Below, in pieces: positions 11,368 through 60,221 of a DNA stretch of 64,000 nt. A model generated the notes under the pieces. It was not told where the DNA came from. It saw nothing but the letters and a program-made list of their open reading frames with translations, and made no database searches. Source of the DNA: a virus. The stretch lies in the IMG/VR virus record IMGVR_UViG_3300045988_035499; one strand, written 5' to 3'. Within the stretch, counting starts at the first letter, position 1, and each line of letters starts with the position of its first letter. The translations under genes and the position numbers were made by a program.

Positions 11368-14300
11368 TCATTTATTCTTTAAAGTTTCAATTTCGGCTTT
11401 AAGCTTATCTATTTCATCCTTGAGTAGTTTAACACCTTCAATAGCAATTACACTAAGCATTTCGTATTCTACCTTCTTTACCTTAACATATTCAACGCCC
11501 TCCTTAGTATATACTTCAAAGCCCTCTTTGTCTTTTACTTCAGATGCTGGAGTTTCTATATCCTCAACTATTTCAGTAAACCCAAGTTCCTCTATATCTT
11601 GAGCTATAGTACCTATTTGTTCTTTATCATTCATAATGAACGATGCAGTAGGTATAGCACAGATTTGTTCTATAGTATGTTCAAGAGGTTTGACATTCGT
11701 TTTAAGTCTGATATCAGATTCTTTCCAGAAACCATTCGGAGCAAACACCTTATTAGCATATATATTTATATATGCATCAAGATTGTTATCCATAAACTTA
11801 AAGCCATTCGTATTAGCTATCAAGCACATGCCAAATCTATTAGCCCAGTGGAAACCAATACGAGGAGCATATATATCTGCTGTTTGAGTATTATCTACTA
11901 ATCCTTGCTCTCTAACTTCCAAACCTCCTGTTCTATAGTAATCTGTGCTAGCATTAGCACCATATACAACTGCATGCCCTTTAACGTCGGCTGTACCATT
12001 AAAACTTTGACCAAATATAGTTCTTGCAGTCTGTAGCTTTGTGGCAGAGGCAACGTTATCCTCTAACGTAGCAAGGATTCTCCACGCATTCCAACTATTT
12101 GCGCTTGGATTACTAGTTCTCCATCGTGGGTTATAATTTGAGCTACTTTTTCCTACATATCCACATAATTGATATGTAGAATATCCTTCAGCTGCTGATC
12201 CTGCTCTAACTGTTATACCTGACCACCAATCAGCAGTTGGTGTACCTGTGTTATTATACCATGCGTACACTTCATAGTTTGGGAAAAAATCTGGAAGTCT
12301 TTCCGAATTACTTATACCATGATTCTGTATTCCTTTAGAAGTAATATTCCAAGTGCCGGATGCACCAGTACCAGTTTTGGTAGGAACGTAATTGGTATAG
12401 TTGTATGAATCTAATACATCATAGTCGGTTCCTGCTCTACGGTGTAATATATTGCTATCTCCACTACGAATGAAGGTTACACCAGACTACATACCCAGTA
12501 TGGAATTAACGCCTTCATAAAGCACTAAACCATTACCGTTTATTCCTAGAATACCACTACCAGTAGCTCTATCATTTAGAGTTAAATAACCTGTCATTGT
12601 ATCTCCTGCTTTCTTTACGAAAGCAGTTGGATTTATTCCACCAACAGTAGTGGCATTATCTGCATTAGCAGCACTATTTACTTTTTCGTTAGTGTACCAA
12701 GGTCTGTAAGCTTGCACTACATGTTGGGCAGTACCAGTTAACGATGTTTCATAGGTTATAGTAAATTTAGTATTCCATGTAGGAGCAACATAAGAATATC
12801 CATTATTAACATTCATAACAGATAAGCCTGTATAGTGCCCTGCTGGGACAGCTACCCATAAGTAACCATCTGTATCATAACCAAATCTTACTTCTATACT
12901 CTTCTATACAGACGTAGTAGCTATTACTTTAGCTGTTGGATTATGCCAATGATTACTACTATAGTTATATCCGCCAACCATTATATCAGTAGCGTGATAA
13001 TCCTAGTATACTCTAATAGTAAATTGTAGCATCCAGGTTTCTTTTGAAAGTATTTTTACCTTATACCATGTACTATTACTATTAGCAGCAGTAGTTCTAT
13101 AATGAGCAAATTGTGAAAATGCATCATACGTAAACCCGCTTAACTTAAGAGAGTTATCAGCAGTACCTGCAGTTGCAGGTTTACCAATACTTACAGTCTG
13201 TGCACTACCTCCAGATGGAGTTACAGTAAAGTTACCAGATGAGCCATTAGCAAAAGTATAAGTAGTATTAGTATTTGTATCTGTCCAAGGTACATTTACA
13301 TACATTTGTTCATTTGATAACTATACTGGATAGTTCTTCCCATTAGCTGTATAACCTATTTTAACGCCACCTCTAGTACTAGCGGATGCTAATGGCAATG
13401 TATAAGTAGTGTCCTACGCAGGTATACCCAATGCCGTAATATCAGCTTTGGTGACTGCAATTGGATTACGTACATGACTTAAAGAGTCAGTTGCAAACTT
13501 ATAGAATCCAAGAGCTTTACTAGGAGCATCTCCTATAGGATGTACATAGTTATTATAAGTAGCGCCTTTAGTTAGTGTCAAAGTATCACCTACAATACTA
13601 CCTGTAGTAACCGCATTACCTGATCCAGATACAGTAATCTTACTTACTTTACCAGAATTAATACCAGTAATATCATCCTATATTTCAGTAATAGTATTAT
13701 TGATATCTGTAATCTAATTAGGTATAGTAGTATCAAGTTTTACCTTATCTGCAGCAGCCATGACACCAGCAGCACTTGAAGATGCAGCGGGTATCGTTAC
13801 TGTTTTAGCTGTAGGAGTAGAATAGTTAATACCACTCTTAGAGGCTCCTGTGTAGTTAAATACTACATTAGATGCATTCGCTGTTGGACTAGTTACTGTA
13901 CTAACCAAATTAGCTGGTAGACTAGTTAAAGCGTCTCTATTTGCTTTACCCTTGTTTCCAGCATATGCGGTACTAGAAGTCTCTCCTAAAGCTAAACTCT
14001 TACTTATTTCAGTATAACCTGTACCAGACCATCTGTAAGTAAGATTAGTATCTAAAGTAACATATATCTTACCTGTTTCACCTGTAGTAGGGAAAGCACT
14101 TAAAGTAGGATATTCTAATACATCGTCTACATAAGATGGTAACTGAGAAGATGGAACTAAACCGTTTGAGTCTAATGATGCTAACCCACCGGGTTGACCT
14201 TTAGTATTAATAAAAGCATTTAGATTATTAGTGATACTAGTATCACCAGCTTTTCTATCGGCTATTTCTTGCTGTAAAGCTTCTTCTAAGTCATCTGTAG

Positions 14301-15459
14301 CACCATCGAACTTATTCTCAATCCTAGTAATCTCTGATATACGTTCTTCGATTTCTTTATTGAGTTTAGCAGTTATACTAATGTCTGCATTAGTTCTATC
14401 ATGAATTTCTAAATCTATACGATCATGTAATATATTATCTTCTCGTATACGACTTTCTTCTTCCTTATTTATATTATTCTATAGAGTATCATCAGCTTTT
14501 TCTCTATCGGCTATTTCTTTATCTATCTACTGTTGAAGTAAAGTATCTGCGTCAGTTCTATCCTAGATTTCTTTGTCGATTCTCTCATCAACCCTAGTAA
14601 TCTCGTTAGTTCTGTCTACTATCTCCTTATCAATCTTAGTATCTACTCTTTCAATTTCGCTGATACGATCCGATATCTCTTTATCGACCCTACTATCTAC
14701 TCTTGTTATTTCGTCTTTACGGTCTTGAATTTCCTTATTTAGAGCTTCTCTAAGACTTTCTAATTCATTAGGAATAGTAACATCTAACTTATACTTATCT
14801 TCTTTACTCATGATACCATCTTGATCTACAGTAGCTTTGGCTAAGAACAGATCTATATAGATGTTATCTCCACTTTTTGTAGTAGTCCATTTGATACAGG
14901 GAGTATTTGTATTAGTAAGATTAATAGCCTCTGTTACTAAATCATATACAGATGTATTAGTGTTGTCCTTAATCTTAATGTTGGTTAAAGCTAAATCACC
15001 AATATATATATACTTACCATTGTCAGTAAGTACATAATCTCCATCACCAGTAGTTTTAAGTGCTAAAGTATTGTATAAGGTTCTGTTATAGTCTAATTCT
15101 TTACTTACTGTAATACTTTCAAATTCAACAGTAGTAATATTATTAGAGCCTTCTTCCTTAACATAGTTAGGAAATTCTAACTACAATTCACCATTTACTA
15201 TAGAATGCTCTGTAGATACTAACAAACCTTTTCTGCTAGCATTAGGAGTATATATAAGTAGATTGTCTCTTATAGCGTTATATAGTCTACCGTATTCTTC
15301 TGCACTTACTTTTCCATCTGTTACTACAGGATCAAATACATATACAGACATGCCTTTGAACGATGTAATCTTTATCTTACCGTTATGTTCACCTTCCTAA
15401 AAAGGTATCATCTCATTACCAGTAAGATTTACACGTTCTTCAGCTTGACTAATTTTCAA
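11368..15459 (-). CDS. long tail fibre with a C-terminal S74-type intramolecular chaperone domain
   Basis: Five ORF fragments share frame 1, with 12 in-frame TAG. An upstream TGA at 15658 bounds the frame. No ATG lies near the conserved N-terminus, so a TTG start at 15459 is inferred ((M)KISQAEERVNLTGNEMIPF). GFWKE|SDIRLK is at about 11716. Confidence 0.65.
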
Positions 15460-15463
15460 GCCT

Positions 15464-15880
15464 TTAATTCTTGTTGGTATTATTTGGGTTTTCTACTAAA
15501 TCTTCATATCTCTAAGTTTCTAATAATAATACTCCACCATCTTCCCATAACCAAGGATCTTCATTCTCTTCTAATAAAGCAAGTATAAATGGATCGTCTA
15601 TAATACAAGTAGGCTTACCACAACCATAATCACATGATTGACAGTAAGGTAACAACTTCATAGGTCTATTACTGTACAACTAAGGATGTACTCTAGTAAT
15701 TAACCTAGCTAACATATCTGTATCAGTAGACTTAGTAGCCTACGATGTGCGACTATATTCTAACAAATCTGTCAGCTCATTGTACACAATCGTAGCTACT
15801 ATATCTCTGTTATTTCTGATAATACTATTCTTTATAATAGAATTAGTCTTATCGTTTATGTAATATTTTGGATCGTTCAT
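15464..15880 (-). CDS. small Cys-rich protein with a GGVLLLET motif
   Basis: ATG 15880-15878, TAA 15466-15464. Three TAG (15740, 15680, 15512). Contains CQSCDYGCGKPTC. Confidence 0.5.
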
Positions 15881-27931: not shown

Positions 27932-30436
27932 TTACTTCTCTCCTACCGTTTTATTCTTCAGTGCCGTGCGTGCTTTCAACCTTTCACGTTCCAAAGCTGC
28001 GTTATCTTTTTGTTTTTGTAGCTACTTCTAAGCTTCTAACTTTTGCTTTTCTAATTCAATTTTCTTATCTTCGATCTCTTTCTTCATCTTTTGTTCACGA
28101 ATTTTAGTATTGAATTCAAACTGTTTAGAGGCTTCATCAGATGCTTGTTTTCTTTCAGCTAAGGCTTGATTTGCTATCTCTATAGGATCGGGTATTCCAT
28201 TATTATCCTAGTCCATATCCTCTACACCCCTATAAGCATTGAGTTGAGCTACAGTGATCTTAGTAGCATTATCAGAATCTATCTTATACTTCTCAAGATC
28301 CATCTCAGCTTCCTTAATCATAAGTTCTTCTTCCTTAACTTCATTCTGCATTTGGATCATTTGCTGTTCACGTTGAGCTTGAGCTTCTTCTATAGCTTGT
28401 TGCTGTTCCATACGTTTCTACTCTATTTCTTCAAGTTTACCCTTGATCATAGTAACATTATCCATAGTAATAATCTCAGCAATATCAAGTAAGCTAGCTC
28501 CATTTTGCATAGCAGGCTGCATAAGATTTCTAAGGGCTTCTATCTGTTGTTGATTTTTAGTAGTGTCTTCTACAAATATATCATAGTCCTCATAGAAGAA
28601 ATTTTCAGATAAAGTAATGAAAGCTCTAGTAGCATCATCTAGTATGTAATGTAATTCTGTCTTATTATCTTTCCATACATACTTAGCTGTGTTGAGCAAC
28701 ATTGTGATAGCTTCCTTCTTCACTTGGTTATGCACCCAAAACCAAGGTTCAGTGATATGAGCAGACTGTACTACAGATCTTTCTACATTACCTACTAATT
28801 CATTAGATGCTATAGCTCCCTCACGCTGTTTACTTACTCCAGATATTTCAGACAGCATACTTTCAATCTTATCCATCAAATTGATGTATTGATCAATAGT
28901 ATTAGCCATAGAAAGGTCTAATGCAGTAATCTAGTTGAACTATGATGGTTTACCACCTTCTCTACCAGGTATGTCCCAACCCTCTTCATATGGGTTGATA
29001 AAGTTAACGCCAAGAGCAGATAAATAGTGCATCCATTTAGATACATCTATGTTCATAGACTTAGGTATCTGAGTAATATCCATATTTACTACTTTACCTT
29101 TATCTCTAGACATAGCTAACTCCAATCTATACCAAAGTACTATGTACATATACTGTAAAGGTTTCATCATACTAACTAGACTTCTAGGTCTACTATTAGT
29201 ATTATTATATATTACTCCAGTATATGGTAATCTTTGAGCATTAGGATTATCTGCAGATACATACTGATAGTCTACAGGCTATATTCCTACATAACCGTCT
29301 TCACCGTATCTATACCCTTCCCATACTTCAATTATCCATTTCCACTCTACATTCAACTCCATACCAGTTTCTTTATAAGTTTCATCAACTTCATATTCTT
29401 CTGGCATACCAGTTTCAGGATCAATTACAGTTACAAATCCAATCTTCTTAAATGACTTCCAACAACAATGCCACAATCTAATATTGTCTGAACCGTCAAA
29501 TGGATTAGAAGTGAATCCGTTTATGTTATGTAATTTGATATGAGCATAGTCTAATGATGTCTTTCTAAGTTCTGGATTTATACCTCCTTTGGCACCATCT
29601 TCCATTAGCTCCAGGAGCTCATTTAACTACTTCTCAGACATTTTATCATACAACCTGTCATATATCTCAGTTGCAGACATAATCATCTCATAACAGCACC
29701 ATTGTGCCTCGTGAATAAACTCTATATCTGATGTTTCAGTGTCATAATCAAAGTATAAAGGATTGATGCGTTGCATACATGGTTGTCCATTTAATACTCC
29801 TACATAGTATATCTCTTCTCCACCTATCAAAGCGTCTTTCCACCCTTTAAAGAATTCATGAGTAATATTAAGTTTATTCTTTAAATAATTAAGACTATGA
29901 TATGCTGTTATCTCTGCTATATCCTTATAGTCTTTACTCATGTATTTCTATATCTATTCTGGAGTCATAATCTCTCCAGACTCTAAAGCTTGCTGATATC
30001 TTTGCTATTCTTCAGGCCCTAGCTTACTCATAATAGTAGCCTGAATATAGTCTATTAACATCTATTTAGCTTTATCTTGCATCTCACTAGTAGCAATATC
30101 ACTAGTACGTGTAACTCGGAAGTTAAATGGCCTTTTAGTTTCCTCTCCTAATAGTAAGTCTATCTTTGGCTTGATTATATTATAATCCTAAGCCATAGCT
30201 GGGAATCCATCCTACTATTTAAAAGGATTTGTAACATACTTTAGATCTTTCTCATTATATATACTATTGTAAAGATCATAGTAAGTCTACATTTCTTCCT
30301 TACGTGTCCTAGTATTGCCATTTCTAGATCCTCCCTAACTGTGTCCTATAATATAGTCTACACAGGCTTCCTACCAAGCTTTTGTCTTCTTAGACATAGG
30401 AAGTTTCTATATCGGAAACTGATTGATATTATTCAT
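27932..30436 (-). CDS. portal protein
   Basis: Five ORF fragments (29627.., 29279.., 28940.., 28418.., 28208..) share frame 2. ATG 30436-30434, TAA 27934-27932. 19 in-frame TAG. About 834 aa, immediately downstream of TerL. Confidence 0.75.
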
Positions 30437-30438
30437 AA

Positions 30439-32490
30439 TTAAAACATATATGCTTCTATATTATTATCGATTTCATCGTCATGAAACCAATCTTGAGTAA
30501 AAATAGGACCGTCAAACAATACTCGATTCCTATTTTCGTTCTTTTTCTCTTTTACTTTAACATTATATAGCTGTTCTCTATATATCATTACCTGCATCAA
30601 CGCCATGACTCTATCGAAGTTTGCTGTATCATTATAACTGATAAGCTCTTCTAATAGCGGCTCTGATAGTATGTTGTGTAGGTTCTTCTTACCTGGTGAT
30701 TGTTCTTCGTTAAGCCAGTCTTTAATTAAGCCTTCTCCCCATTGCTTAATCTATTTGTTCATGTGACAACCTTTCTTTCTTTGAACTTTGGAGTTTCCAA
30801 CAACATCGGAAATAATATCGGGTTGATCAGCCAACAAATAGTCACAATGCTTAGCAGTAAAGTAAGGAAAAAGACCTTTTCGTTCGTTTTCATACATGAT
30901 ACGCCCGTTATAGTACACAGCTAATTTGCGAAGATTTTCATAGTACTCTTCAGCTGTCTAAGGCCTTCCTGTATATTCTGCAACAATAATATCGTAGTAG
31001 TTTTCAAAATTCTAAAATCTCTTATAAACAAATGTAGAACCTAACGAATTAGTACCCGATTGATCGTGGTCATAAGGGTCTACTCCTAATATATATAATC
31101 CTATAGGAGCATCCTTCATAGGGTGTTCCCATATCACTATAGCACCAGTTGGATCATCATCCTTCTTTAAAGGATAATGTGTTACATCTCCATGTTTCTT
31201 AATAACCCACTTAAGTGTACCATCTGGCTCCCACACTAGATCTCCAACCTATTTTACATTACTAAGACTCTTATTAGTACGTATTTTAGCTAACTGTTCT
31301 TGTAGTTCTTTCTTAGGGAATATATTACCGCCAAACTCCAAACATGCTTCCTATGGGGTTATACAGTGTTCTGCTACATATCTATCTACTGCTACAGAGT
31401 TAGTAGCATTTTCTACTACTTTTCTACGTTCAGATAATATGTACTCTACAGACTTCTTATACAGAGTATTACCATCTTTATCCATGTAGATTCTGTTGCC
31501 ATTCTCATCACGGAAGTCCATATTAGTATACTGTGGTATAAAGAATCCACATTGCTTATCTGATGGAGTTTCGTCCCATATATTATCAAATCCTAGACAG
31601 TTATAACCATCTGGATTATAGAACATATCTTTAAGAGTCTCAAAGTGGCTATCTTCATCTCCGCCAGTACCAAAAGCAATCATTGTACCAAATGCTACAC
31701 CGTCTTGTTCTACAGAAGGTCTAGCAATCTGCCATGCAGCACCTAGTTCAGAAAATGAACCAGCCTCTTCAAATATAATAAGTTTACCGGCTTTACCACG
31801 TACTACGTCAGGATTATCTTTTAGAGTAACACCAATAATCTCTGATTTGAAACCTAATTCCACCTCATTACCATATTCATCTTTAGTAAAGAAACCTGCA
31901 CGTTTACGCATCGAAGTATTAACAGATCTTTTCTTACCCCACGCAGTATTCTTATCTATAAAGTCCATATAATCCCAAGCTTTAGTAAGAATACCATCCT
32001 CTGTCAGGTATTGCTTATTGCTTGCGTATATATATGTCTTGCTACCAGGAAATAAGTAATAGTTACGGCATGCCATTGCTGCATTCTTGTATGAATAACC
32101 TTTACGTCTACTCTTTAATGCGCATAAATGTTTACCTAAACCTTCTGCATCTTCTACTGCTAGAAAGAAGTAATAGTCATAATCGTAAAAGTCAGGGAAC
32201 TGCAATTCACGAGTTTTCTTTACTTTAGTAGTTCCATCTAGGTTAGTTATAGTCGTATATATAATTCGTTGTATAGGACAGAAATTTAAATAAAAATAGT
32301 TATACCCACTAATGAAATCACCATCATCAGCAGTATAACCATACTTACATCTATCTCTCTACTCATCCCAGTATTTGAAGTACTCCGATGTACCTTGAGG
32401 ATACTAACAATAAGAACCAGACGCTAAATACTATAGTGCTGGTCCCCTAAATTTATCGGACTATTTAATTTTTTTAGTAAAGTCGACCAT
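30439..32490 (-). CDS. terminase large subunit
   Basis: Frame 1 runs continuously from ATG 32490 to TAA 30439 with nine TAG. Has an ATPase Walker B-like LIIFEEAGSF, a nuclease-domain GVDPYDHD, and C-terminal NFDRVMALMQVMIY. Confidence 0.8.
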
Positions 32491-32707
32491 GTTTTTCTAT
32501 ATTTATATTCCAATTATATTTCTTACTATCTATAGTACATTCATTCGGCGGTAATAAAAGACTATCTAAAGGAAAATTAATCTCGCTATTTTCTGCATGA
32601 ATTACTTCAAGGCTACTTTCCAAAATAAGCATGATAGTAGTATCCTTTAAATTAGGATATAATTCTTTTAGATATTTATAAAATTCTATTTTCTTTTGGT
32701 CTTCCAT
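32474..32707 (-). CDS. hypothetical 77-aa protein
   Basis: Intact ORF that starts right after the structured RNA and overlaps the TerL start by 17 nt. No recognisable motif. Confidence 0.35.
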   Translation of the reverse strand: MEDQKKIEFYKYLKELYPNLKDTTIMLILESSLEVIHAENSEINFPLDSLLLPPNECTIDSKKYNWNINIEKHGRLY

Positions 32708-33142: not shown

Positions 33143-33182
33143 TGGTAGCCCCACTACGACTCGAACGCAGACTAAGAGGGTT

Positions 33183-34180
33183 CATTTACTCGACTATTGC
33201 ATCCAATCCTAAGATCAGTCTTCTCGTTTAGTCTGTCACGCTGCTTTCGCTTGCGCCTCGTCAACATTTCTGTCTTCCGAGTCAATTAGAGAAGATTCTA
33301 ATAGTGGATTATTTATTATCCCACTACCATCCAATATAGTCCAATAACTATTTAACCAAAAATTATCTTTATTGTAACTTATAGTTCTAGTGCAAGTTTT
33401 TATTCTTTTAGTCTTAACTTCACCTTTATCTATAAGGGCTTTGGCCGCTTCTACTAAACTTCCATATCGAGCTATTTCTTTATGGTTGTTATCGTATCGT
33501 ATTACATATCTTTGGTTTGAATGTTTTTGACCGGTCTCATTTACTATAGCAGTTACAACTTTGCGTCTAATACCTAGAATACTAGATACTTGTTTAACAT
33601 TTCTAACTCTGTCATAAGTATCAGATACTAACTTTCTTAATTCGTCAGTTATCTCATATTTAGATTCGTTTCTTTGTTGATTTCTACTACCATAAGTAGT
33701 GGTCTGACTATGACAATTAGGACAAAGAAATCTTAAATTTTCAAGTCTATTATCATTATTTATACCATTTATATGATCTACTTCTAAGCTTAATGTTTTA
33801 TCATTCCACTTATTTATCCCACATATGGCACATTTATAAGGTAATAGATTATTCTTTATTATACTTCTTCTAAGTACGGATCTTGTATGTTTACAATTTT
33901 CTCTAAATAGTACATCTGGAGATATCTCTTTGTCTTTATTAGATTTTAAGTAAGCATTCTTTCCTTTGAAATTAGAACTATCTAAGTTCAAGTCTGCCAT
34001 CCTTCGTTTGATTTGAGAATAGCCCCAAGAATTTCCGTTTGTTGTATATCCTAATTTAAATAATACTTCTGCAATATTTGTACTGTTGCATATTAATTCT
34101 ACAAACTGTTCGTCTGTACATTCGTATATTTTGTTTATCATAGCTTTATTTTTAACATTCAATTAATCATCGAACTTCTA
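33183..34180 (-). mobile_element. 998-nt intervening sequence in the tRNA anticodon loop (intron candidate with a homing-endonuclease ORF)
   Basis: U precedes the 5' break and G is the last nucleotide before exon 2, matching the group I splice-site rule. Almost all of it is the HNH ORF. A GAAA-capped hairpin (GCGCAAGCGAAAGCAGCGT) lies near the 3' end. Confidence 0.55.
33236..34141 (-). CDS. HNH homing endonuclease
   Basis: EVDHINGINNDNRLENLRFLCPNCHSQ is an HNH motif, flanked by CxxC pairs and a C-terminal helix-turn-helix-like region. ATG at 34141; the track's TTG start is at 34162. TGA at 33236. Confidence 0.8.
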   Translation of the reverse strand: MINKIYECTDEQFVELICNSTNIAEVLFKLGYTTNGNSWGYSQIKRRMADLNLDSSNFKGKNAYLKSNKDKEISPDVLFRENCKHTRSVLRRSIIKNNLLPYKCAICGINKWNDKTLSLEVDHINGINNDNRLENLRFLCPNCHSQTTTYGSRNQQRNESKYEITDELRKLVSDTYDRVRNVKQVSSILGIRRKVVTAIVNETGQKHSNQRYVIRYDNNHKEIARYGSLVEAAKALIDKGEVKTKRIKTCTRTISYNKDNFWLNSYWTILDGSGIINNPLLESSLIDSEDRNVDEAQAKAA

Positions 34181-34223
34181 AGAGCCTCCTGTGCTAACCA
34201 TTACACCATAGGGCAATATTAAG

Positions 34224-34327
34224 AGGGAGAGGAAGGACTCGAACCTTCAAACCCAAGAGCTTTATTAACGACGACTTTAGGGCGCTTCCGTCAATCTACT
34301 GCCGTATACCTATTCCGCCACTCTCCC
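34224..34327 (-). ncRNA. 104-nt tRNA-like element without a canonical anticodon arm
   Basis: GGGAGAG/CTCTCCC acceptor, a tRNA-Leu-like D region (TGGCGGAATAGGTATACGG) and a GAAGG-TTCGAGT-CCTTC T arm. The centre folds only as GACGG-13 nt-TCGTC; that loop contains CCCUAAA. Confidence 0.4.
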
Positions 34328-42882: not shown

Positions 42883-43250
42883 CTAATAAATCATGTAAAT
42901 TAGAATCTTATTAATAAGTTAATGCAGTAAATATTACTGCATCTATACTGTGAGAATCAGTATCAACTTTGTGGGGCTTATATTTAGACAATGTGTGATA
43001 ATAGTTGCAAATATTATTATATAATCTAATATTAGTGCAGATGAAATCAAAGATAGTTCGTATTTGCGGTATTGCGGGATACGAACAAGTCAAGTCATTA
43101 TAAGACTGGGTAGCGTGATACAAAAAATCCTAGCTGACCTGTAGCTAGGTATCTTTAAGGTGAGAATCCTTGACAATCCTGTGGGGCTCATATCTTTAGC
43201 TGTCCATTCAACTTGCGCTGTAGTTGAAATCGGCAACCAGCAAAGTATTA

Positions 43251-43268
43251 GTGCAGACGTTAAAATCA
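43251..43268 (+). repeat. 18-nt motif GTGCAGACGTTAAAATCA, copy 1
   Basis: Identical to 45284-45301. A degenerate copy is at 43036-43049. Confidence 0.8.
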
Positions 43269-43432
43269 GGAACAACTACATCATTCCTAACAATATTATT
43301 AGTCATAAGCTTAACAACAATACGATGTAGCCAAGTATGCCCGTCTTTAGTATCTAACAAAACTACGTTTTGCCTGTTTTTGCTGTATTATTTTTAGCAA
43401 TTCATTCCAAATGACTAGTGTGTCATTACTAA

Positions 43433-45183: not shown

Positions 45184-45283
45184 GTCTTCAGAAAATGACA
45201 AACATGTGGGGCGTAAGAAATTCTATATCTATAATCCATTCTGTTTAAGTTATAGATGAAAGTAACAGAAAAGAATTTTGATC

Positions 45284-45301
45284 GTGCAGACGTTAAAATC
45301 A
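45284..45301 (+). repeat. 18-nt motif GTGCAGACGTTAAAATCA, copy 2
   Basis: See 43251-43268. Confidence 0.8.
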
Positions 45302-45542
45302 TGTACTCCAATAAGGATGGTTTGACAGCTATTCCTGCTTATGAGTTAAAACTATAGTGAGAGTCAGAATATATTAGGTAAGAGAAAACAAGTGAATACT
45401 ATTTATCTTATTAACATGTTTTACAACAAAAGTGGCTAAAAGAGTTTAGCAAAAGTCTGATACTTAGACTTAAAACACAAATCCAAAAGTATCTTGGTCG
45501 TCGTCAATAATTATTAACTAACAATTTAAGATTATGTAAAAA

Positions 45543-46543: not shown

Positions 46544-46768
46544 TTTTAATTTGTTAGTAACATGGTGGATTCAGTCAACCAAAGGATTACTTAAAGCCAG
46601 AACCCTAATGGAAGCTTAGTACTACTAAGCTACTAAGCAAGAGTACAAAGGACTATACAACGGTCAACCTAGCAATAGGTCAGGAGAAGGACGTGGGCTG
46701 TCTGCGAATAAGAAGTACAAATAAGCAGAGTAATTCTTTTAAATTTAAATCATTAAATATCAAGTTAT

Positions 46769-47828: not shown

Positions 47829-47841
47829 GAATCTTTGAATC
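47829..47841 (+). repeat. 13-mer GAATCTTTGAATC, copy 1
   Basis: Exact copies at 47920-47932, 48055-48067 and 53840-53852. Confidence 0.85.
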
Positions 47842-47919
47842 AATACTCTTAGTGAGGGGCGGTTGGGCTTTTGCCGGGGATACCAGCGCACACGGACCTG
47901 AATTAACAGGTCACATATG

Positions 47920-47932
47920 GAATCTTTGAATC
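47920..47932 (+). repeat. 13-mer GAATCTTTGAATC, copy 2
   Basis: Exact repeat. Confidence 0.85.
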
Positions 47933-48054
47933 AATTATGTGGTGTTACAATGAACTACTGATCATAAGTCTGAGATCGCGACAATAAGATTGTCCCGCAT
48001 TAGTAATAATGCTGAAACGCTTTAGTCGTGATATCAAGTCAGACAGATATTTGT

Positions 48055-48067
48055 GAATCTTTGAATC
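48055..48067 (+). repeat. 13-mer GAATCTTTGAATC, copy 3
   Basis: Exact repeat. Confidence 0.85.
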
Positions 48068-48194
48068 TTATAGAACTAAGTAACGAGTTTGAGAATGTTC
48101 TATATCAGATATCGTTAGTATTATCAAGATCAGTAATAGAGATTAACCATCTCAAGACCATAGGGTATATGACTTTGGTCGGTCATATACCCAC

Positions 48195-48254
48195 ATTGAC
48201 TGCTAGGTCTATGAATCAGTCGTATGGACGAGGGTTTGATCCCCTCCAGCTCCA
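48195..48254 (+). ncRNA. tmRNA-like acceptor piece (3' half of a tRNA-like domain)
   Basis: GGACGAGGGTTTGATCCCCTCCAGCTCCA: T arm GAGGG-TTTGATC-CCCTC (48230-48246), acceptor 3' strand CAGCTCC (48247-48253), discriminator A. Closely resembles bacterial ssrA 3' ends as I recall them. Confidence 0.5.
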
Positions 48255-48382
48255 CAACAAGTGCTAAAGGATGTGGGTGAGACTCCCTTAAGTGCTCGCG
48301 AGATAGTAATTGCTTGAGCTGCCTGATAACGGCTAGGATAATTTAGAAGCTTCGTTCTAGCTGGCACTTTATTACATTACAA

Positions 48383-48520
48383 GGGGCTGAATGAATTTGA
48401 CAGCGACAATGTGAAGTAGAATAGGTCAATAAGCAGATAACTGGCAACACAAGTTATGTAACAGATTACACTCGCTTAGTAGCGTAAGTAATCTAACGGC
48501 TAAGCTAATGTCGTAAAAAG
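48383..48520 (+). ncRNA. tmRNA-like coding piece (5' acceptor strand plus candidate tag frame)
   Basis: GGGGCTGAATGAATTTGACAGCG starts at 48383. GGGGCTG pairs with the upstream CAGCTCC. GCGAC/GTCGT and GTCAAT/ATTGAC give P2-like pairing. A frame from GGC 48443 encodes GNTSYVTDYTRLVA and stops at TAA 48485. Confidence 0.45.
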
Positions 48521-48524
48521 CTGG

Positions 48525-48599
48525 AGTAAGTAAGCTTTGCATGGTAGTGAAGCCTTGGGTTTTACCAAGAGATAAGGAGTTCGAGTCTCCTACTTACTA
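48525..48599 (+). ncRNA. tRNA-like element with a 6-nt anticodon loop
   Basis: AGTAAGT/ACTTACT acceptor, GCTT/AAGC D stem, AGGAG-TTCGAGT-CTCCT T arm. The anticodon arm is CTTGG-GTTTTA-CCAAG (six-nt loop, no position 26). Confidence 0.4.
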
Positions 48600-48635
48600 C
48601 AACTAAATTAAATTTAATCAATAAATTAATTTGAA

Positions 48636-49890: not shown

Positions 49891-49920
49891 GGATATAGGG
49901 CTTTGATCGGCCCTATATCC
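49891..49920 (+). promoter_or_regulatory. 11-bp perfect hairpin between 49531..49890 and the sigma-factor gene
   Basis: GGATATAGGGC-tttgatcg-GCCCTATATCC, starting at the nucleotide after the TAA. No U tract. Confidence 0.45.
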
Positions 49921-49938
49921 ACTATAAAGCCCGTAGAT

Positions 49939-50499
49939 ATGACAGATGAAGAAAAACAACAGTTATTCGATCTGATCAAACAGGCGAAAGAAGGCAAGCA
50001 AATTGCCTTTACAAAGCTTTATGAAAAGTATAAGCAAACTATCTACATTACTATATATCATATAGTAAATAACAGAGACGTTGCTGATGATTTAACATCA
50101 GTTACTTTCATAAAAGCTTTTTCTAAGATTAGTAGTTATGTTAATAACATTTCATTTGAGATGTGGTTAAAAACAATAGCTATTAATAGTAGTATTGACT
50201 ATATTCGTCGTACTAAAAAAGAGAAGTCAAATTATTGGATTGACGATAGTGATAATAGTTTCCAGTTGAGTGATTCTGCAGATCATTCACCTGAAGAGAA
50301 TTATATCTTTGAAGAAACAAATTTGAAACTACAAGATGCTTTATCAAGACTTCGCTTTAAGTATAGGAATATATTAAAGTTGCGTACTGAGAATAATCTC
50401 TCTTACAAAGAGATTTCAGAGCAACTTGGTCTTAGTGAGAGTCAAGTAAAATCGACACTCAATAAGGCTAGAGAGAAACTTAAACAATTGTTAAACTAA
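49939..50499 (+). CDS. sigma-70 family (ECF-like) RNA polymerase sigma factor
   Basis: Region 2-like DVADDLTSVTFIKAF...WLKTIAINSSIDYIRR and region 4 HTH LSYKEISEQLGLSESQVKSTLNKAREKL. ATG at 49939; the track starts at a TTG at 49903. Confidence 0.75.
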   Translation: MTDEEKQQLFDLIKQAKEGKQIAFTKLYEKYKQTIYITIYHIVNNRDVADDLTSVTFIKAFSKISSYVNNISFEMWLKTIAINSSIDYIRRTKKEKSNYWIDDSDNSFQLSDSADHSPEENYIFEETNLKLQDALSRLRFKYRNILKLRTENNLSYKEISEQLGLSESQVKSTLNKAREKLKQLLN

Positions 50500-58141: not shown

Positions 58142-58212
58142 TCCTATATAGCTCAGTTGGTAGAGCCGCTAGTAATAGTGTGATTGCGCTGGTTCGAGTC
58201 CAGCTATAGGAT
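58142..58212 (+). ncRNA. tRNA-like element whose anticodon loop is replaced by a GUAA tetraloop
   Basis: TCCTATA TA GCTC AGTTGGTA GAGC, then CGCTA-GTAA-TAGTG, then TGATTGC GCTGG TTCGAGT CCAGC TATAGGA T. Perfect acceptor, D and T arms, but only 21 nt where 22-23 are needed. Confidence 0.45.
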
Positions 58213-58232
58213 CTAATTTTAACTTTATTAAT

Positions 58233-60221
58233 ATGATTATACGAAACAAAATTGTTTATGTATATGATATTGAGGTATTTCCGAATGTATTTCATTGTAC
58301 TGTAAAGAATTCTGAAACAGGACAATTATATATGTTTGAAATATCGCAGAGAAAGAATCAATTAGATGAGTTAGTTCAATTTTTTCATACAGTAAATGAA
58401 CAGCATAATTGGAATGATTTGTATACTATAGATATTCAACTAAACACTGATAAGATGTTTTGTGGATATAATAATCTACATTATGATAATGCTATTATAA
58501 ATTATATCATAGATTATTATAATATAATGAAATACAAAGGATATAGAACTATTTGTAGATCTATATTTAACCTTAGTAAAGTAATAACTACTTCTAGTGA
58601 AGATAATATCGACGCTTGGAAGAAGTGGAAGTATGCAACTTATTTTGAATCTTTTGACCTGCTAACAATGCTCTATTCTAATAAATTAAGAGTAGGTTTG
58701 AAAGAGATGCAAGTTACTATGCAATACAAGAATGTACAAGAATTTGTATGTGATTGGAGAGCAGATTTACCTGAAAAAGAAATTGACTCAATGATTGAGT
58801 ATAATATTAATGACGTTAATTCTACTGAGGAACTCCTCAATCGATGTAAAAAAGATGTTGATTTAAGAATAGCTATTGAAGACGAATACAAAGTAAGAGT
58901 ACTTAGTAAAGATGGTGTAAACATTGGCATGAAAATCCTAACTCAAAAGTATTTAGAGAAAACGGGACAAACATGGTGGGATATTAAAGATTTGAGATCT
59001 CCTATGTCAGTTATACCATTAAAAGATGTTATATTACCATTTATTAAGTATGATAGTCCAATACTACAAAAGGTATTATCTGATATGAAACAACAGATAG
59101 TATCTCCAGGTAGGAAAGGATATGAAAACAAGTTCTTATTTGAAGGACTAAGATACTCTGTAGGAGTTGGAGGGATACATTCTGTGAATGATCCTGAAAT
59201 AATTATTCCTAAAGAAGACGAAATGCTCATAGATATAGATGTTGCTTCACTATATCCAAGTATGCTAATAGAATATGAGTTCTACCCTAAACATTTAGGT
59301 AAAGAATTTCTAGAAGTGTATAGACAAATAAAGAATGAGCGTATAGAAGCTAAACACAAAGGTGATAAAGTTAAAAATGAGACTTTAAAGCTCGCTCTTA
59401 ATGGATTATCAGGTAACTTACAGAATGAACATAACTTCTGTTATAGTCCTTTTGCAGTAATGCAGATTAGAATAAATGGACAGTTACTATTACTAATGCT
59501 AGCTGAAAAACTAACTCAAATTGGATGTAGAATCGTCCAAGCAAATACTGATGGCCTCTTTGTCCTTCTAAAGAGAGATGTATATTCTAAAGCAAACAAT
59601 ATTTGTAGAGAATGGGAACAACTTACTAAGCTTACCTTAGAAGAAGATCGTTTTAAAGCTATGTATCAATATGCTATTAATGATTATTTCGCTATTACTG
59701 AAGAAGGTAAAGTAAAAGAGAAAGGTATGTTTATTACTACTGTGAAATTAGGGAAGGGTTTAACTCCAAAGATCATACCGAAAGCAGTAATAAACTTTTT
59801 TAAAGATGGAGTACCAGTAGAAGATACTATAAAAGGTTGCAAAGATATAAGAGATTTCTTAATGTCAGAAAAAACTGGTAAACAATGGCATGTTGAGTAT
59901 ATGAATAAAGAACAACAGAGAACTAACCGTTTCTATGCATCTACAGATGGTGGATACTTATGGAAATGGAAAGGAGGAGATATTGAAGAAGATAACTACG
60001 TATGGGACAATAATATACAGTCTTATAAGGAGCAAGGAAAAAGAATAGTAAATACTCCTAAACAGTATCAAAATATGCTTACTGCATCTGGTGTTACTTT
60101 ATTAAATTACTTAGATGATAAACCAATTGAAGAGAGAAAGATTAATTATAGGTATTATATAATGGAAGCCTATAAGATAATTAGAGAGTTAAAACCATTA
60201 CAATTGAGCCTATGGGACTAA
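58233..60221 (+). CDS. family B DNA polymerase
   Basis: Exo motifs YDIEVFPN, YNNLHYDNAII and YNINDVNST. Polymerase motifs DVASLYPSM, KLALNGLSGN and ANTDGLFV. Confidence 0.85.
   Translation: MIIRNKIVYVYDIEVFPNVFHCTVKNSETGQLYMFEISQRKNQLDELVQFFHTVNEQHNWNDLYTIDIQLNTDKMFCGYNNLHYDNAIINYIIDYYNIMKYKGYRTICRSIFNLSKVITTSSEDNIDAWKKWKYATYFESFDLLTMLYSNKLRVGLKEMQVTMQYKNVQEFVCDWRADLPEKEIDSMIEYNINDVNSTEELLNRCKKDVDLRIAIEDEYKVRVLSKDGVNIGMKILTQKYLEKTGQTWWDIKDLRSPMSVIPLKDVILPFIKYDSPILQKVLSDMKQQIVSPGRKGYENKFLFEGLRYSVGVGGIHSVNDPEIIIPKEDEMLIDIDVASLYPSMLIEYEFYPKHLGKEFLEVYRQIKNERIEAKHKGDKVKNETLKLALNGLSGNLQNEHNFCYSPFAVMQIRINGQLLLLMLAEKLTQIGCRIVQANTDGLFVLLKRDVYSKANNICREWEQLTKLTLEEDRFKAMYQYAINDYFAITEEGKVKEKGMFITTVKLGKGLTPKIIPKAVINFFKDGVPVEDTIKGCKDIRDFLMSEKTGKQWHVEYMNKEQQRTNRFYASTDGGYLWKWKGGDIEEDNYVWDNNIQSYKEQGKRIVNTPKQYQNMLTASGVTLLNYLDDKPIEERKINYRYYIMEAYKIIRELKPLQLSLWD

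Follow-up and report, generated by a model that had tools for sequence, protein, structure and literature searches.

Known tmRNAs and the locus under study

Bacterial one-piece transfer-messenger RNA (tmRNA), the product of ssrA, contains four pseudoknots, of which the first, PK1, is the most conserved; PK1 to PK4 are typical of bacterial tmRNA and not universal. In a second group the ssrA gene is circularly permuted and the RNA consists of two pieces, and the Rfam family that unites these genes, RF04321 (tmRNA_permuted), has 296 alpha-, beta- and cyanobacterial sequences as its seeds (PMC11915505). Phages are also known to carry such genes: a two-piece tmRNA was described in the OM43 phage Melnitz, and ARAGORN made 53 two-piece calls in INPHARED, 50 of them in marine or aquatic phages (PMC9004378). 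A tmRNA database holds 79 phage entries, and its phylum table has no virus rows (PMC11915505). Here we analyze a locus in a 64,000-nt stretch of viral DNA (IMG/VR record IMGVR_UViG_3300045988_035499; this whole stretch is called the window below), which an earlier note, made from the letters alone, had taken for a two-piece, permuted tmRNA-like gene. Judging from its sequence, we consider it likely that a crAss-like phage of the Suoliviridae has, at 48195-48600 on the plus strand, a functional ssrA gene in circularly permuted form.

The window comes from a crAss-like phage of the human gut. The nearest records are cr53_1, cr4_1, cr56_1, cr52_1 and cr60_1, and the taxonomy of all phage-database matches checked is Crassvirales, Suoliviridae (subfamilies Loutivirinae, Uncouvirinae and Bearivirinae). 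In RefSeq, a feature named 'transfer-messenger RNA, SsrA', with coordinates identical to the ARAGORN output, is present in cr60_1, cr52_1, cr114_1, cr115_1 and cr125_1 and lacking in cr53_1, cr56_1, cr4_1 and cr6_1. With five relatives already annotated and two-piece tmRNAs of phages already published (PMC9004378), the novelty that the earlier note attached to the gene was overrated, and the gene is not a new kind of system. In the literature, no paper discussing tmRNA in crAss-like or recoded phages was found (the matches were citations of tools), and a minimal, Bacteroidota-like lineage of phage tmRNA is undescribed in the papers found.

Detection of the permuted tmRNA gene

Two lines of detection had been suggested beforehand, namely ARAGORN and Infernal with the Rfam models. 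ARAGORN called a permuted tmRNA at 48162-48578 (+), with exactly the tag that had been proposed (GNTSYVTDYTRLVA, followed by the stop), while in 100 dinucleotide-preserving shuffles of the 64-kb window it made one tmRNA call and no permuted one. The outcome for Rfam was divided. At the gathering thresholds no match to a tmRNA family was obtained in the window, whereas a search of the local 1.1 kb with permissive filters aligned RF04321 from end to end (48195-48487, full model 1-213, 45.5 bits, E = 1.5e-7; the gathering score of the family is 47 bits). Three related loci exceed this cut-off (L100 with 62.7, L054 with 51.3 and L005 with 50.9 bits). The beta_tmRNA model reached 26.4 bits against a cut-off of 84 and matched only in part (model positions 81-162), the other families of the clan scored lower, and none of the alpha, beta and cyano models (RF01849, RF01850, RF01851) gave a match at cut-off in the window or in 13 relatives. 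When both pieces were folded together with RNAcofold, all five helices (the acceptor stem, the T arm and three P2 segments) were formed at -58.8 kcal/mol (z = -2.9).

The building blocks on which the earlier note had relied are in place. The string GGACGAGGGTTTGATCCCCTCCAGCTCCA lies at 48226-48254 and GGGGCTGAATGAATTTGACAGCG at 48383; the P2 pairings ATTGAC 48195/GTCAAT 48425, GTCGT/GCGAC and TCTAT/GTAGA are recovered by RNAcofold and RNAalifold, with covariation in P2a and P2b; and the frame GGC...TAA at 48443-48487 encodes GNTSYVTDYTRLVA. Together with the permuted call of ARAGORN, the near-threshold score of RF04321, the covariation and the coding constraint on the tag, they bear out the two-piece permuted gene. 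The end at 48520, however, was set too short, as the unit extends over an invariant block (48495-48521) and a tRNA-like element (48529-48600). The parts of the gene are the following.

48163-48192 (+): leader hairpin directly 5' of the acceptor piece, with a 12-bp stem and the loop UUGGUC (RNAfold, -18.6 kcal/mol)
48195-48254 (+): acceptor piece, the 3' half of the tRNA-like domain, 60 nt
48195-48200, 48208-48212 and 48219-48224 (+): acceptor-piece strands of P2c, P2b and P2a, respectively
48230-48234 with 48242-48246 (+): T stem, enclosing the T loop TTTGATC at 48235-48241
48247-48253 (+): acceptor 3' strand CAGCTCC, followed by the discriminator A at 48254
48255-48382 (+): intervening segment, 128 nt
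48383-48528 (+): coding piece, about 146 nt
48383-48389 (+): acceptor 5' strand GGGGCTG, in which G3 pairs with U70
48390-48401 (+): D-loop analogue
48402-48407, 48416-48420 and 48425-48430 (+): coding-piece strands of P2a, P2b and P2c, respectively
48443-48445 (+): resume codon GGC, 12 nt from P2c
48443-48484 (+): tag open reading frame (ORF) encoding GNTSYVTDYTRLVA, with the stop codon TAA at 48485-48487
48463-48494 (+): helix-5 analogue, a two-tier hairpin (outer AGATTAC/GTAATCT, inner CGCT/AGCG) that is present in the co-fold
48495-48521 (+): invariant block AACGGCTAAGCTAATGTCGTAAAAAGC, 27 nt, with a hairpin ACGGC/GTCGT and a 9-nt loop (RNAalifold)
48529-48600 (+): tRNA-like element, a cloverleaf with normal acceptor stem and T arm and a 6-nt anticodon loop (-26.8 kcal/mol)

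The 3' end of the coding piece is placed at 48528 because the tRNA-like element starts at 48529. CCA is not encoded after the discriminator A48254 (the next bases are CAA), and the 128-nt spacer between the pieces is expected to be removed in maturation. The helix-5 analogue encloses the last codons of the tag and its stop codon.

Covariation and conservation among relatives

Three IMG/VR scans and phage records together yielded at least 161 loci with the coding-piece motif, and the gene is found at a conserved position in three subfamilies of Suoliviridae (more than 160 contigs). In 135 of the 161 loci listed, the upstream strand is exactly complementary to the downstream GGGGNNN, and G3:U70 is present in all 135. 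These loci show seven variants of the acceptor stem, in which G1-C, G2-C, G3:U and G4-C are constant and positions 5-7 covary (5' strand / 3' strand).

GGGGCAT / ATGCTCC: 73 loci
GGGGCTG / CAGCTCC: 26 loci
GGGGCTA / TAGCTCC: 14 loci
GGGGGTA / TACCTCC: 10 loci
GGGGTAT / ATACTCC: 6 loci
GGGGATG / CATCTCC: 5 loci
GGGGGTG / CACCTCC: 1 locus

The permuted order on one strand (acceptor piece, spacer, coding piece) is shared by the window and the 135 relatives, among which the spacer varies from 15 to 603 nt and is not conserved in sequence. The discriminator A of the relatives is always followed by C and the next two bases are never CA, so CCA is unencoded there as well.

Covariation was evaluated in an alignment of 38 non-redundant sequences for 29 proposed pairs. 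The proportion of paired cells was 95.6%, in comparison with 38-56% when the 3' partners were slid by 1-3 columns, and the unpaired cells of the acceptor stem come mostly from three sequences that MAFFT had shifted by one column. Changes on both sides of a pair were detected for 15 pairs in 119 cells, and the covariation score was 0.334 as against 0.107 in shuffles (0 of 500 shuffles reached the observed value). These two-sided changes affect four of the seven pairs of the acceptor stem, all five of the T stem, four of six in P2a and two of five in P2b, while P2c is invariant. The same helices were predicted by RNAalifold when no structure was supplied. The helix-5 hairpin was formed by all 45 variants folded singly and its outer stems covary (GGACT/AGTCC, GAACT/AGTTC, CAGACT/AGTCTG). 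The block AACGGCTAAGCTAATGTCGTAAAAAGC shows little or no variation across the 38 sequences, and its motif occurs in more than 120 IMG/VR contigs among the matches listed. The lineage of the window combines the T-loop TTTGATC with a D-loop that has UGAAUUUGAC (GA), while most relatives combine TTCGAYT with a D-loop that has UGGUUUUGAC (GG); the change of C to T in the T-loop along with GG to GA in the D-loop fits a compensated tertiary pair of the G19-C56 type, and counts as a single evolutionary event.

Several other pairings were considered and rejected. A PK1-like pairing of CUGCU (48200-48204) with AGCAG (48432-48436) has one side invariant in the relatives and the other variable. GCTGGAG (48520-48526) is an exact complement of CTCCAGC in the acceptor piece of the window, but the relatives keep GCTGGAG with differing acceptor strands, so this match is a coincidence. 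For a helix CGGCT/AGCTG after the ORF, the 3' strand is not conserved and RNAalifold favours ACGGC/GTCGT. A kissing contact of the loop GCUAAU with the P2 internal loop UGUUAG shows no covariation, since both sides are invariant, and is weakened in the window by C48203.

In some relatives the spacer or the acceptor piece contains further elements. The spacer of cr56_1 (L004) holds a minus-strand 'endonuclease' (homing-endonuclease) gene (851-1432) and that of cr114_1 (L005) a tRNA-His(GTG) (871-943, Rfam 63 bits). In cr4_1 (L312) and cr6_1 (L313) a reverse-strand ORF lies directly 5' of the coding piece, annotated as 'hypothetical protein' in the former and as 'endonuclease' in the latter. A group I intron (Rfam 73-85 bits) interrupts the T-loop of the acceptor piece in L055 (857-1784), L069 (4081-4906) and L160, and by sequence the T-loop is also interrupted in L072, L091, L108, L122, L139, L172 and L178. 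Several hundred nt separate the intron from the matching 3' acceptor strand in L055 and L069, a stretch that may contain an endonuclease gene on the reverse strand; in L160 the parser found no 3' acceptor strand after the interrupted T-loop.

Coding constraint on the tag frame

All 88 unique coding pieces possess an intact frame of 13-14 codons, which starts with GGC (GAC in one clade) 12-13 nt after P2c and always ends at the same place (TGA in 51, TAA in 37 and TAG in none). Because the frame never departs from 13-14 codons, length variants differ by exactly one codon. The encoded tags follow the theme G-N-T-S-Y-V-(T/M)-D-Y-T-(R/G)-(L/I)-(V/A)-A, to which GNFYVTDYTRIAA and DKSFVTDYTRIAA are to be added. 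Synonymous changes are frequent (AAT/AAC, GAT/GAC, TAT/TAC, ACA/ACT, CGC/CGT), and the residue changes are conservative (V/I, L/I, A/V). The frame has no start codon, its product ends in hydrophobic residues and Ala, and its stop codon lies within helix 5. On the comparison of these 88 pieces, the tag frame is under coding constraint.

Flanking elements

The leader hairpin is present in 53 of 150 related loci, where its stem covaries and its loop TTTGGTCG is conserved, and other lineages have an A/T-rich flank. On the 3' side, the tRNA-like element at 48529-48600 was reported by ARAGORN as 'tRNA-???', and no Rfam tRNA match to it was listed. Every lineage has a tRNA or tRNA-like element 3' of the coding piece, with covarying acceptor stems, ranging from a genuine tRNA-Ile GAT (Rfam 52.8 bits) to a minihelix of acceptor stem and T arm (cr52_1, cr114_1). 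Acceptor stem and T arm are the parts recognised by RNase P and RNase Z. Since it is these parts that are kept, the element presumably serves as a processing signal and defines where the coding piece ends on its 3' side.

The motif GAATCTTTGAATC has four exact copies in the window (47829, 47920, 48055 and 53840, all +), while 0.18 are expected and 0 of 100 shuffles reached four. Three of the copies cluster in the non-coding stretch 47829-48067 upstream of the tmRNA gene, and the motif may be a phage promoter, operator or regulatory motif. A sigma-70 promoter scan gave fewer promoter-like sites than shuffles. The terminators predicted by a terminator scan were rejected, being arms of the tRNA-like element.

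The early region 5' of the tmRNA gene is rich in structured RNAs (42941-43052, 43151-43271, 45184-45304, 46571-46740 and 47895-47977). Three Hatchet ribozymes there score 85-96 bits and a single RAGATH-9 scores 133.6 bits; a RAGATH-20-like match is weak, at 32.6 bits where the cut-off is 101. The relatives show the same order just 5' of the tmRNA gene, RAGATH-9 being followed by RAGATH-20 or RAGATH-7-assoc. On the other side, 1.3 kb 3' of the gene, the product of 49903-50496 (+) is a sigma factor of the ECF type, in which the domains Sigma70_r2 and r4 are present and which is labelled 'RNA polymerase sigma-W factor' in relatives.

Relation to Bacteroidota tmRNA

A degenerate pattern of the tRNA-like 3' half was used to take 120 loci, mostly from Bacteroidota and some from Acidimicrobiia. 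ARAGORN detected 101 tmRNAs in them, all of which (101/101) are one-piece and about 395 nt long, and CCA is encoded in only 10 of the 120 host genes. The tags of Bacteroidota begin with Gly (e.g. GENNYALAA), and one of them is GNTSYQLAA. The 5' motif TTTGACNGC is found in 66 of 87 Gly-first genes versus 3 of the 14 others. The 5' end of the gene in the window is identical to that of a Bacteroidaceae gene at 29 of 32 positions, and its 3' end to that of a Bacteroidales gene at 31 of 33. The likeness to Bacteroidota remarked on in the earlier note stands, and consists of the 5' motif TTTGACAGC, the Gly-first tag and the resume context AACTGGC, which is common to the window and Bacteroidota genes. 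By eye it had seemed plausible that the distal P2 region and the tag ORF are also homologous to those of Bacteroidota tmRNA; this was dropped, as local alignment was no better than for shuffles and only the tRNA-like core reached significance. The permuted lineages of alpha-, beta- and cyanobacteria were compared through their Rfam models only.

Most likely, as far as sequence can tell, the gene descends from a one-piece ssrA of Bacteroidota type through a separate permutation with loss of the pseudoknots. Because the presumed host phylum has one-piece genes only (101/101), the permutation looks phage-specific; if this is true, a permuted lineage with such a host phylum would represent an independent gene permutation, and one that took place in a virus. 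In the tmRNA database, assemblies of Bacteroidota hold 18 'alpha', 23 'beta' and 7 'cyano' permuted genes, the phylum otherwise having standard forms (PMC11915505, Table S2). Some of these permuted calls could be crAss-like contigs binned with their hosts.

TAG recoding in the window

Few viruses of the human gut are as abundant as crAss-like phages, many of which reassign a stop codon late in infection. The claim of the earlier note that this phage rewires a stop codon agrees with its late minus-strand genes, which need TAG to be read through: in the block at 2.3-32.5 kb (2365-32502), long frames appear only with TAG read-through, as in the following examples.

27932-30460 (-): portal gene with 19 in-frame TAG (PHROG 6547, E = 5e-160, a full-length match to 7-815 of 827 profile positions)
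11368-15657 (-): TAG-recoded late frame of 1,429 aa with 17 TAG
30439-32502 (-): TAG-recoded late frame with 10 TAG

In the plus-strand early region, where the tmRNA gene lies, in-frame TAG is almost absent. A TAG stop occurs in 9 of 87 Gly-first host tags and in 0 of 88 phage frames, a contrast that is only suggestive because the phage sequences are related to each other.

No TAG-suppressor tRNA or CUA anticodon was identified in the 64-kb window by ARAGORN and Rfam. With introns allowed, ARAGORN found a tRNA-Lys(CTT) at 33143-34327 (-) with a 998-nt insertion that contains a 308-aa TAG-free frame (33236-34162); beside it lies a tRNA with a long variable arm and a 16-nt insertion (Rfam tRNA, 34 bits). 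One of these two odd tRNAs could be the missing TAG suppressor. Another tRNA, at 58142-58213 (+), scores 45.3 bits with Rfam and overlaps the start of a 681-aa frame (58176-60221); ARAGORN draws it with a 6-nt anticodon loop, and its anticodon is not assignable.

Proposed function and alternative explanations

For the processing, charging, tagging and biological role of the phage tmRNA, we propose the following course. A single transcript would hold the 60-nt acceptor piece, then a spacer of 128 nt that can be discarded, the coding piece of about 146 nt and finally the tRNA-like element. The 7-bp acceptor stem and three P2 segments would pair the pieces into a tRNA-like domain that has a T arm and no anticodon arm. 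Host RNase P would cleave 5' of G48383 and 5' of the tRNA-like element at 48529, the trailer 3' of A48254 would be trimmed, and the host would add CCA. Host alanyl-tRNA synthetase (AlaRS) would charge the RNA by way of G3:U70 and the discriminator A, and host SmpB and EF-Tu would bring it to stalled ribosomes. Translation would then resume at GGC 48443, appending (A)GNTSYVTDYTRLVA, and terminate at TAA 48485 within the helix-5-like hairpin. The hydrophobic LVA, LAA and IAA ends of the tags resemble the ALAA ends of the host and would send the product to proteolysis.

The role of such an RNA would most likely be to keep up ribosome recycling during infection, because with TAG reassigned and host messages degraded the demand for rescue should rise. 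A link between the tmRNA and the reassignment of the stop codon is plausible, and a conserved ribosome-rescue RNA in phages would make the connection of code reassignment to ribosome rescue concrete and testable. A far more specific proposal can be put together from these parts. It holds that a separate permuted lineage was born in viruses from the one-piece ssrA of Bacteroidota, lost every pseudoknot, which leaves two pieces of about 210 nt in total, and is matured by flanking tRNA-like signals, and that its purpose is tied to TAG reassignment: host and early messages ending in TAG would be read through, ribosomes would pile up at message ends, the phage RNA, whose own stop is never TAG, would free them, and the read-through products would receive a phage-specific tag. 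As a whole, this proposal is tentative, and we are inclined to doubt that every part of it is correct.

Several observations weigh against a functional ssrA gene with this origin and role. The RF04321 score of the window lies 1.5 bits under the gathering cut-off, and this copy is therefore missed by the curated cut-off. No pseudoknots were found by manual inspection, and the fold tools used do not predict them; only 12 nt separate P2c from the resume codon, and after the tag ORF RNAalifold gives only helix 5 and one invariant hairpin. Some related lineages have no canonical T-loop (e.g. GGGGC-TATCGTAT-GCCCC), and such degenerate T-loops could reflect a relaxed tRNA-like function. Beyond the tRNA-like core, the similarity to Bacteroidota is no better than in shuffles, which leaves about 65 nt, the first residue of the tag and the resume context as the basis of the proposed origin. 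SmpB was not found among the 10 ORFs neighbouring the tmRNA gene, to which the search was confined, and with none in these ORFs the activity of the phage tmRNA would rely wholly on host SmpB. The link with TAG recoding is based on the two being found together in a single phage family and on related, non-independent sequences that lack TAG stops.

The absence of detected pseudoknots, PK1 included, and the degenerate T-loops of some lineages would also suit a decoy or inhibitor, whose tRNA-like domain soaks up host SmpB, AlaRS or ribosomal A sites and thereby blocks trans-translation of the host; the tmRNA-like RNA of mycobacteriophage DS6A, which has no coding sequence, is a precedent (cited in PMC11915505). 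A decoy needs no frame, however, and all 88 coding pieces keep a tag of 13-14 codons with synonymous changes; the host-like resume context and the covarying helix 5 at the stop codon speak against it too. With frame, resume context and helix 5 all conserved, a pure decoy is improbable. We give a little more credit, though we still think it unlikely, to the view that the two-piece tmRNA works and that its tag, instead of acting as a plain degron, redirects or marks stalled products, for example for a particular protease or adaptor or by sparing some of them. The tags are longer than those of hosts (13-14 versus 9-10 residues), have a conserved core V-T/M-D-Y-T whose internal DYT is absent from host tags such as GENNYALAA, and vary more than host tags at the C-terminus (LVA, LAA, IAA, LSA, ITA). 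Their C-terminal residues nevertheless stay hydrophobic and end in Ala, as in known ssrA degrons, and the sequence points to no alternative receptor.

The scenario that the earlier note had named as its own refutation, in which pieces of host ssrA (an attP remnant or recombination debris) were captured in permuted order by chance and have no function, is very improbable indeed. In its favour, integration at tmRNA genes is common and fragments of ssrA are frequent in phages (PMC9004378), and the tRNA-like core is nearly identical to Bacteroidales genes (29/32 and 31/33). Such fragments are contradicted by the concerted change of paired strands across lineages, seen in the acceptor stem, the T stem and P2a, and by the coding constraint on the tag frame; the conserved position in three Suoliviridae subfamilies and more than 160 contigs also argues against capture. 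A functional permuted ssrA gene remains the explanation we prefer. As a naturally minimal tmRNA, about 210 nt long and with no pseudoknots found, it bears on the question of which parts of tmRNA are needed.

Comparison with known systems

The permuted tmRNAs of alpha-, beta- and cyanobacteria (RF01849, RF01850, RF01851; merged as RF04321) have in common with the phage gene the gene order, an acceptor stem and P2 that hold two RNAs together, G3:U70, the discriminator A and a tag frame. The phage gene differs from them in having TTTGACAGC where the consensus of RF04321 is UUCGACgg, in resuming at a Gly codon and in the tRNA-like element that follows its coding piece, and no pseudoknots were found in it. 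The tmRNAs of marine myophages (Melnitz, pelagiphages and cyanophages; PMC9004378) are likewise permuted ssrA genes in lytic phages. The marine genes fall together with alpha, beta or cyano lineages of hosts (PMC9004378), whereas the Suoliviridae gene is associated with a presumed host phylum of one-piece genes, the human gut and a TAG-recoding phage.

Reduced RNAs without pseudoknots are known from jakobid mitochondria, where the gene is usually permuted, and from mycobacteriophage DS6A (PMC11915505); these have no recognisable tag frame, in contrast to the conserved frame of the Suoliviridae RNA. The intron-bearing form of tmRNA, with a group I intron in the T-loop, is matched by L055, L069 and L160, while the gene in the window is intronless; the table of forms in PMC11915505 includes none that combines permutation with an intron. 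The one-piece tmRNA of Bacteroidota (RF00023) shares with the phage gene the tRNA-like core (29/32 and 31/33), the context AACTGGC, a Gly-first tag and an unencoded CCA, and the Bacteroidota tag GNTSYQLAA agrees with the phage tag in its first five residues. The two differ in architecture, one piece of about 395 nt as against two of about 60 and 146 nt, and in the tag as a whole, GENNYALAA in the hosts and GNTSYVTDYTRLVA in the phage.

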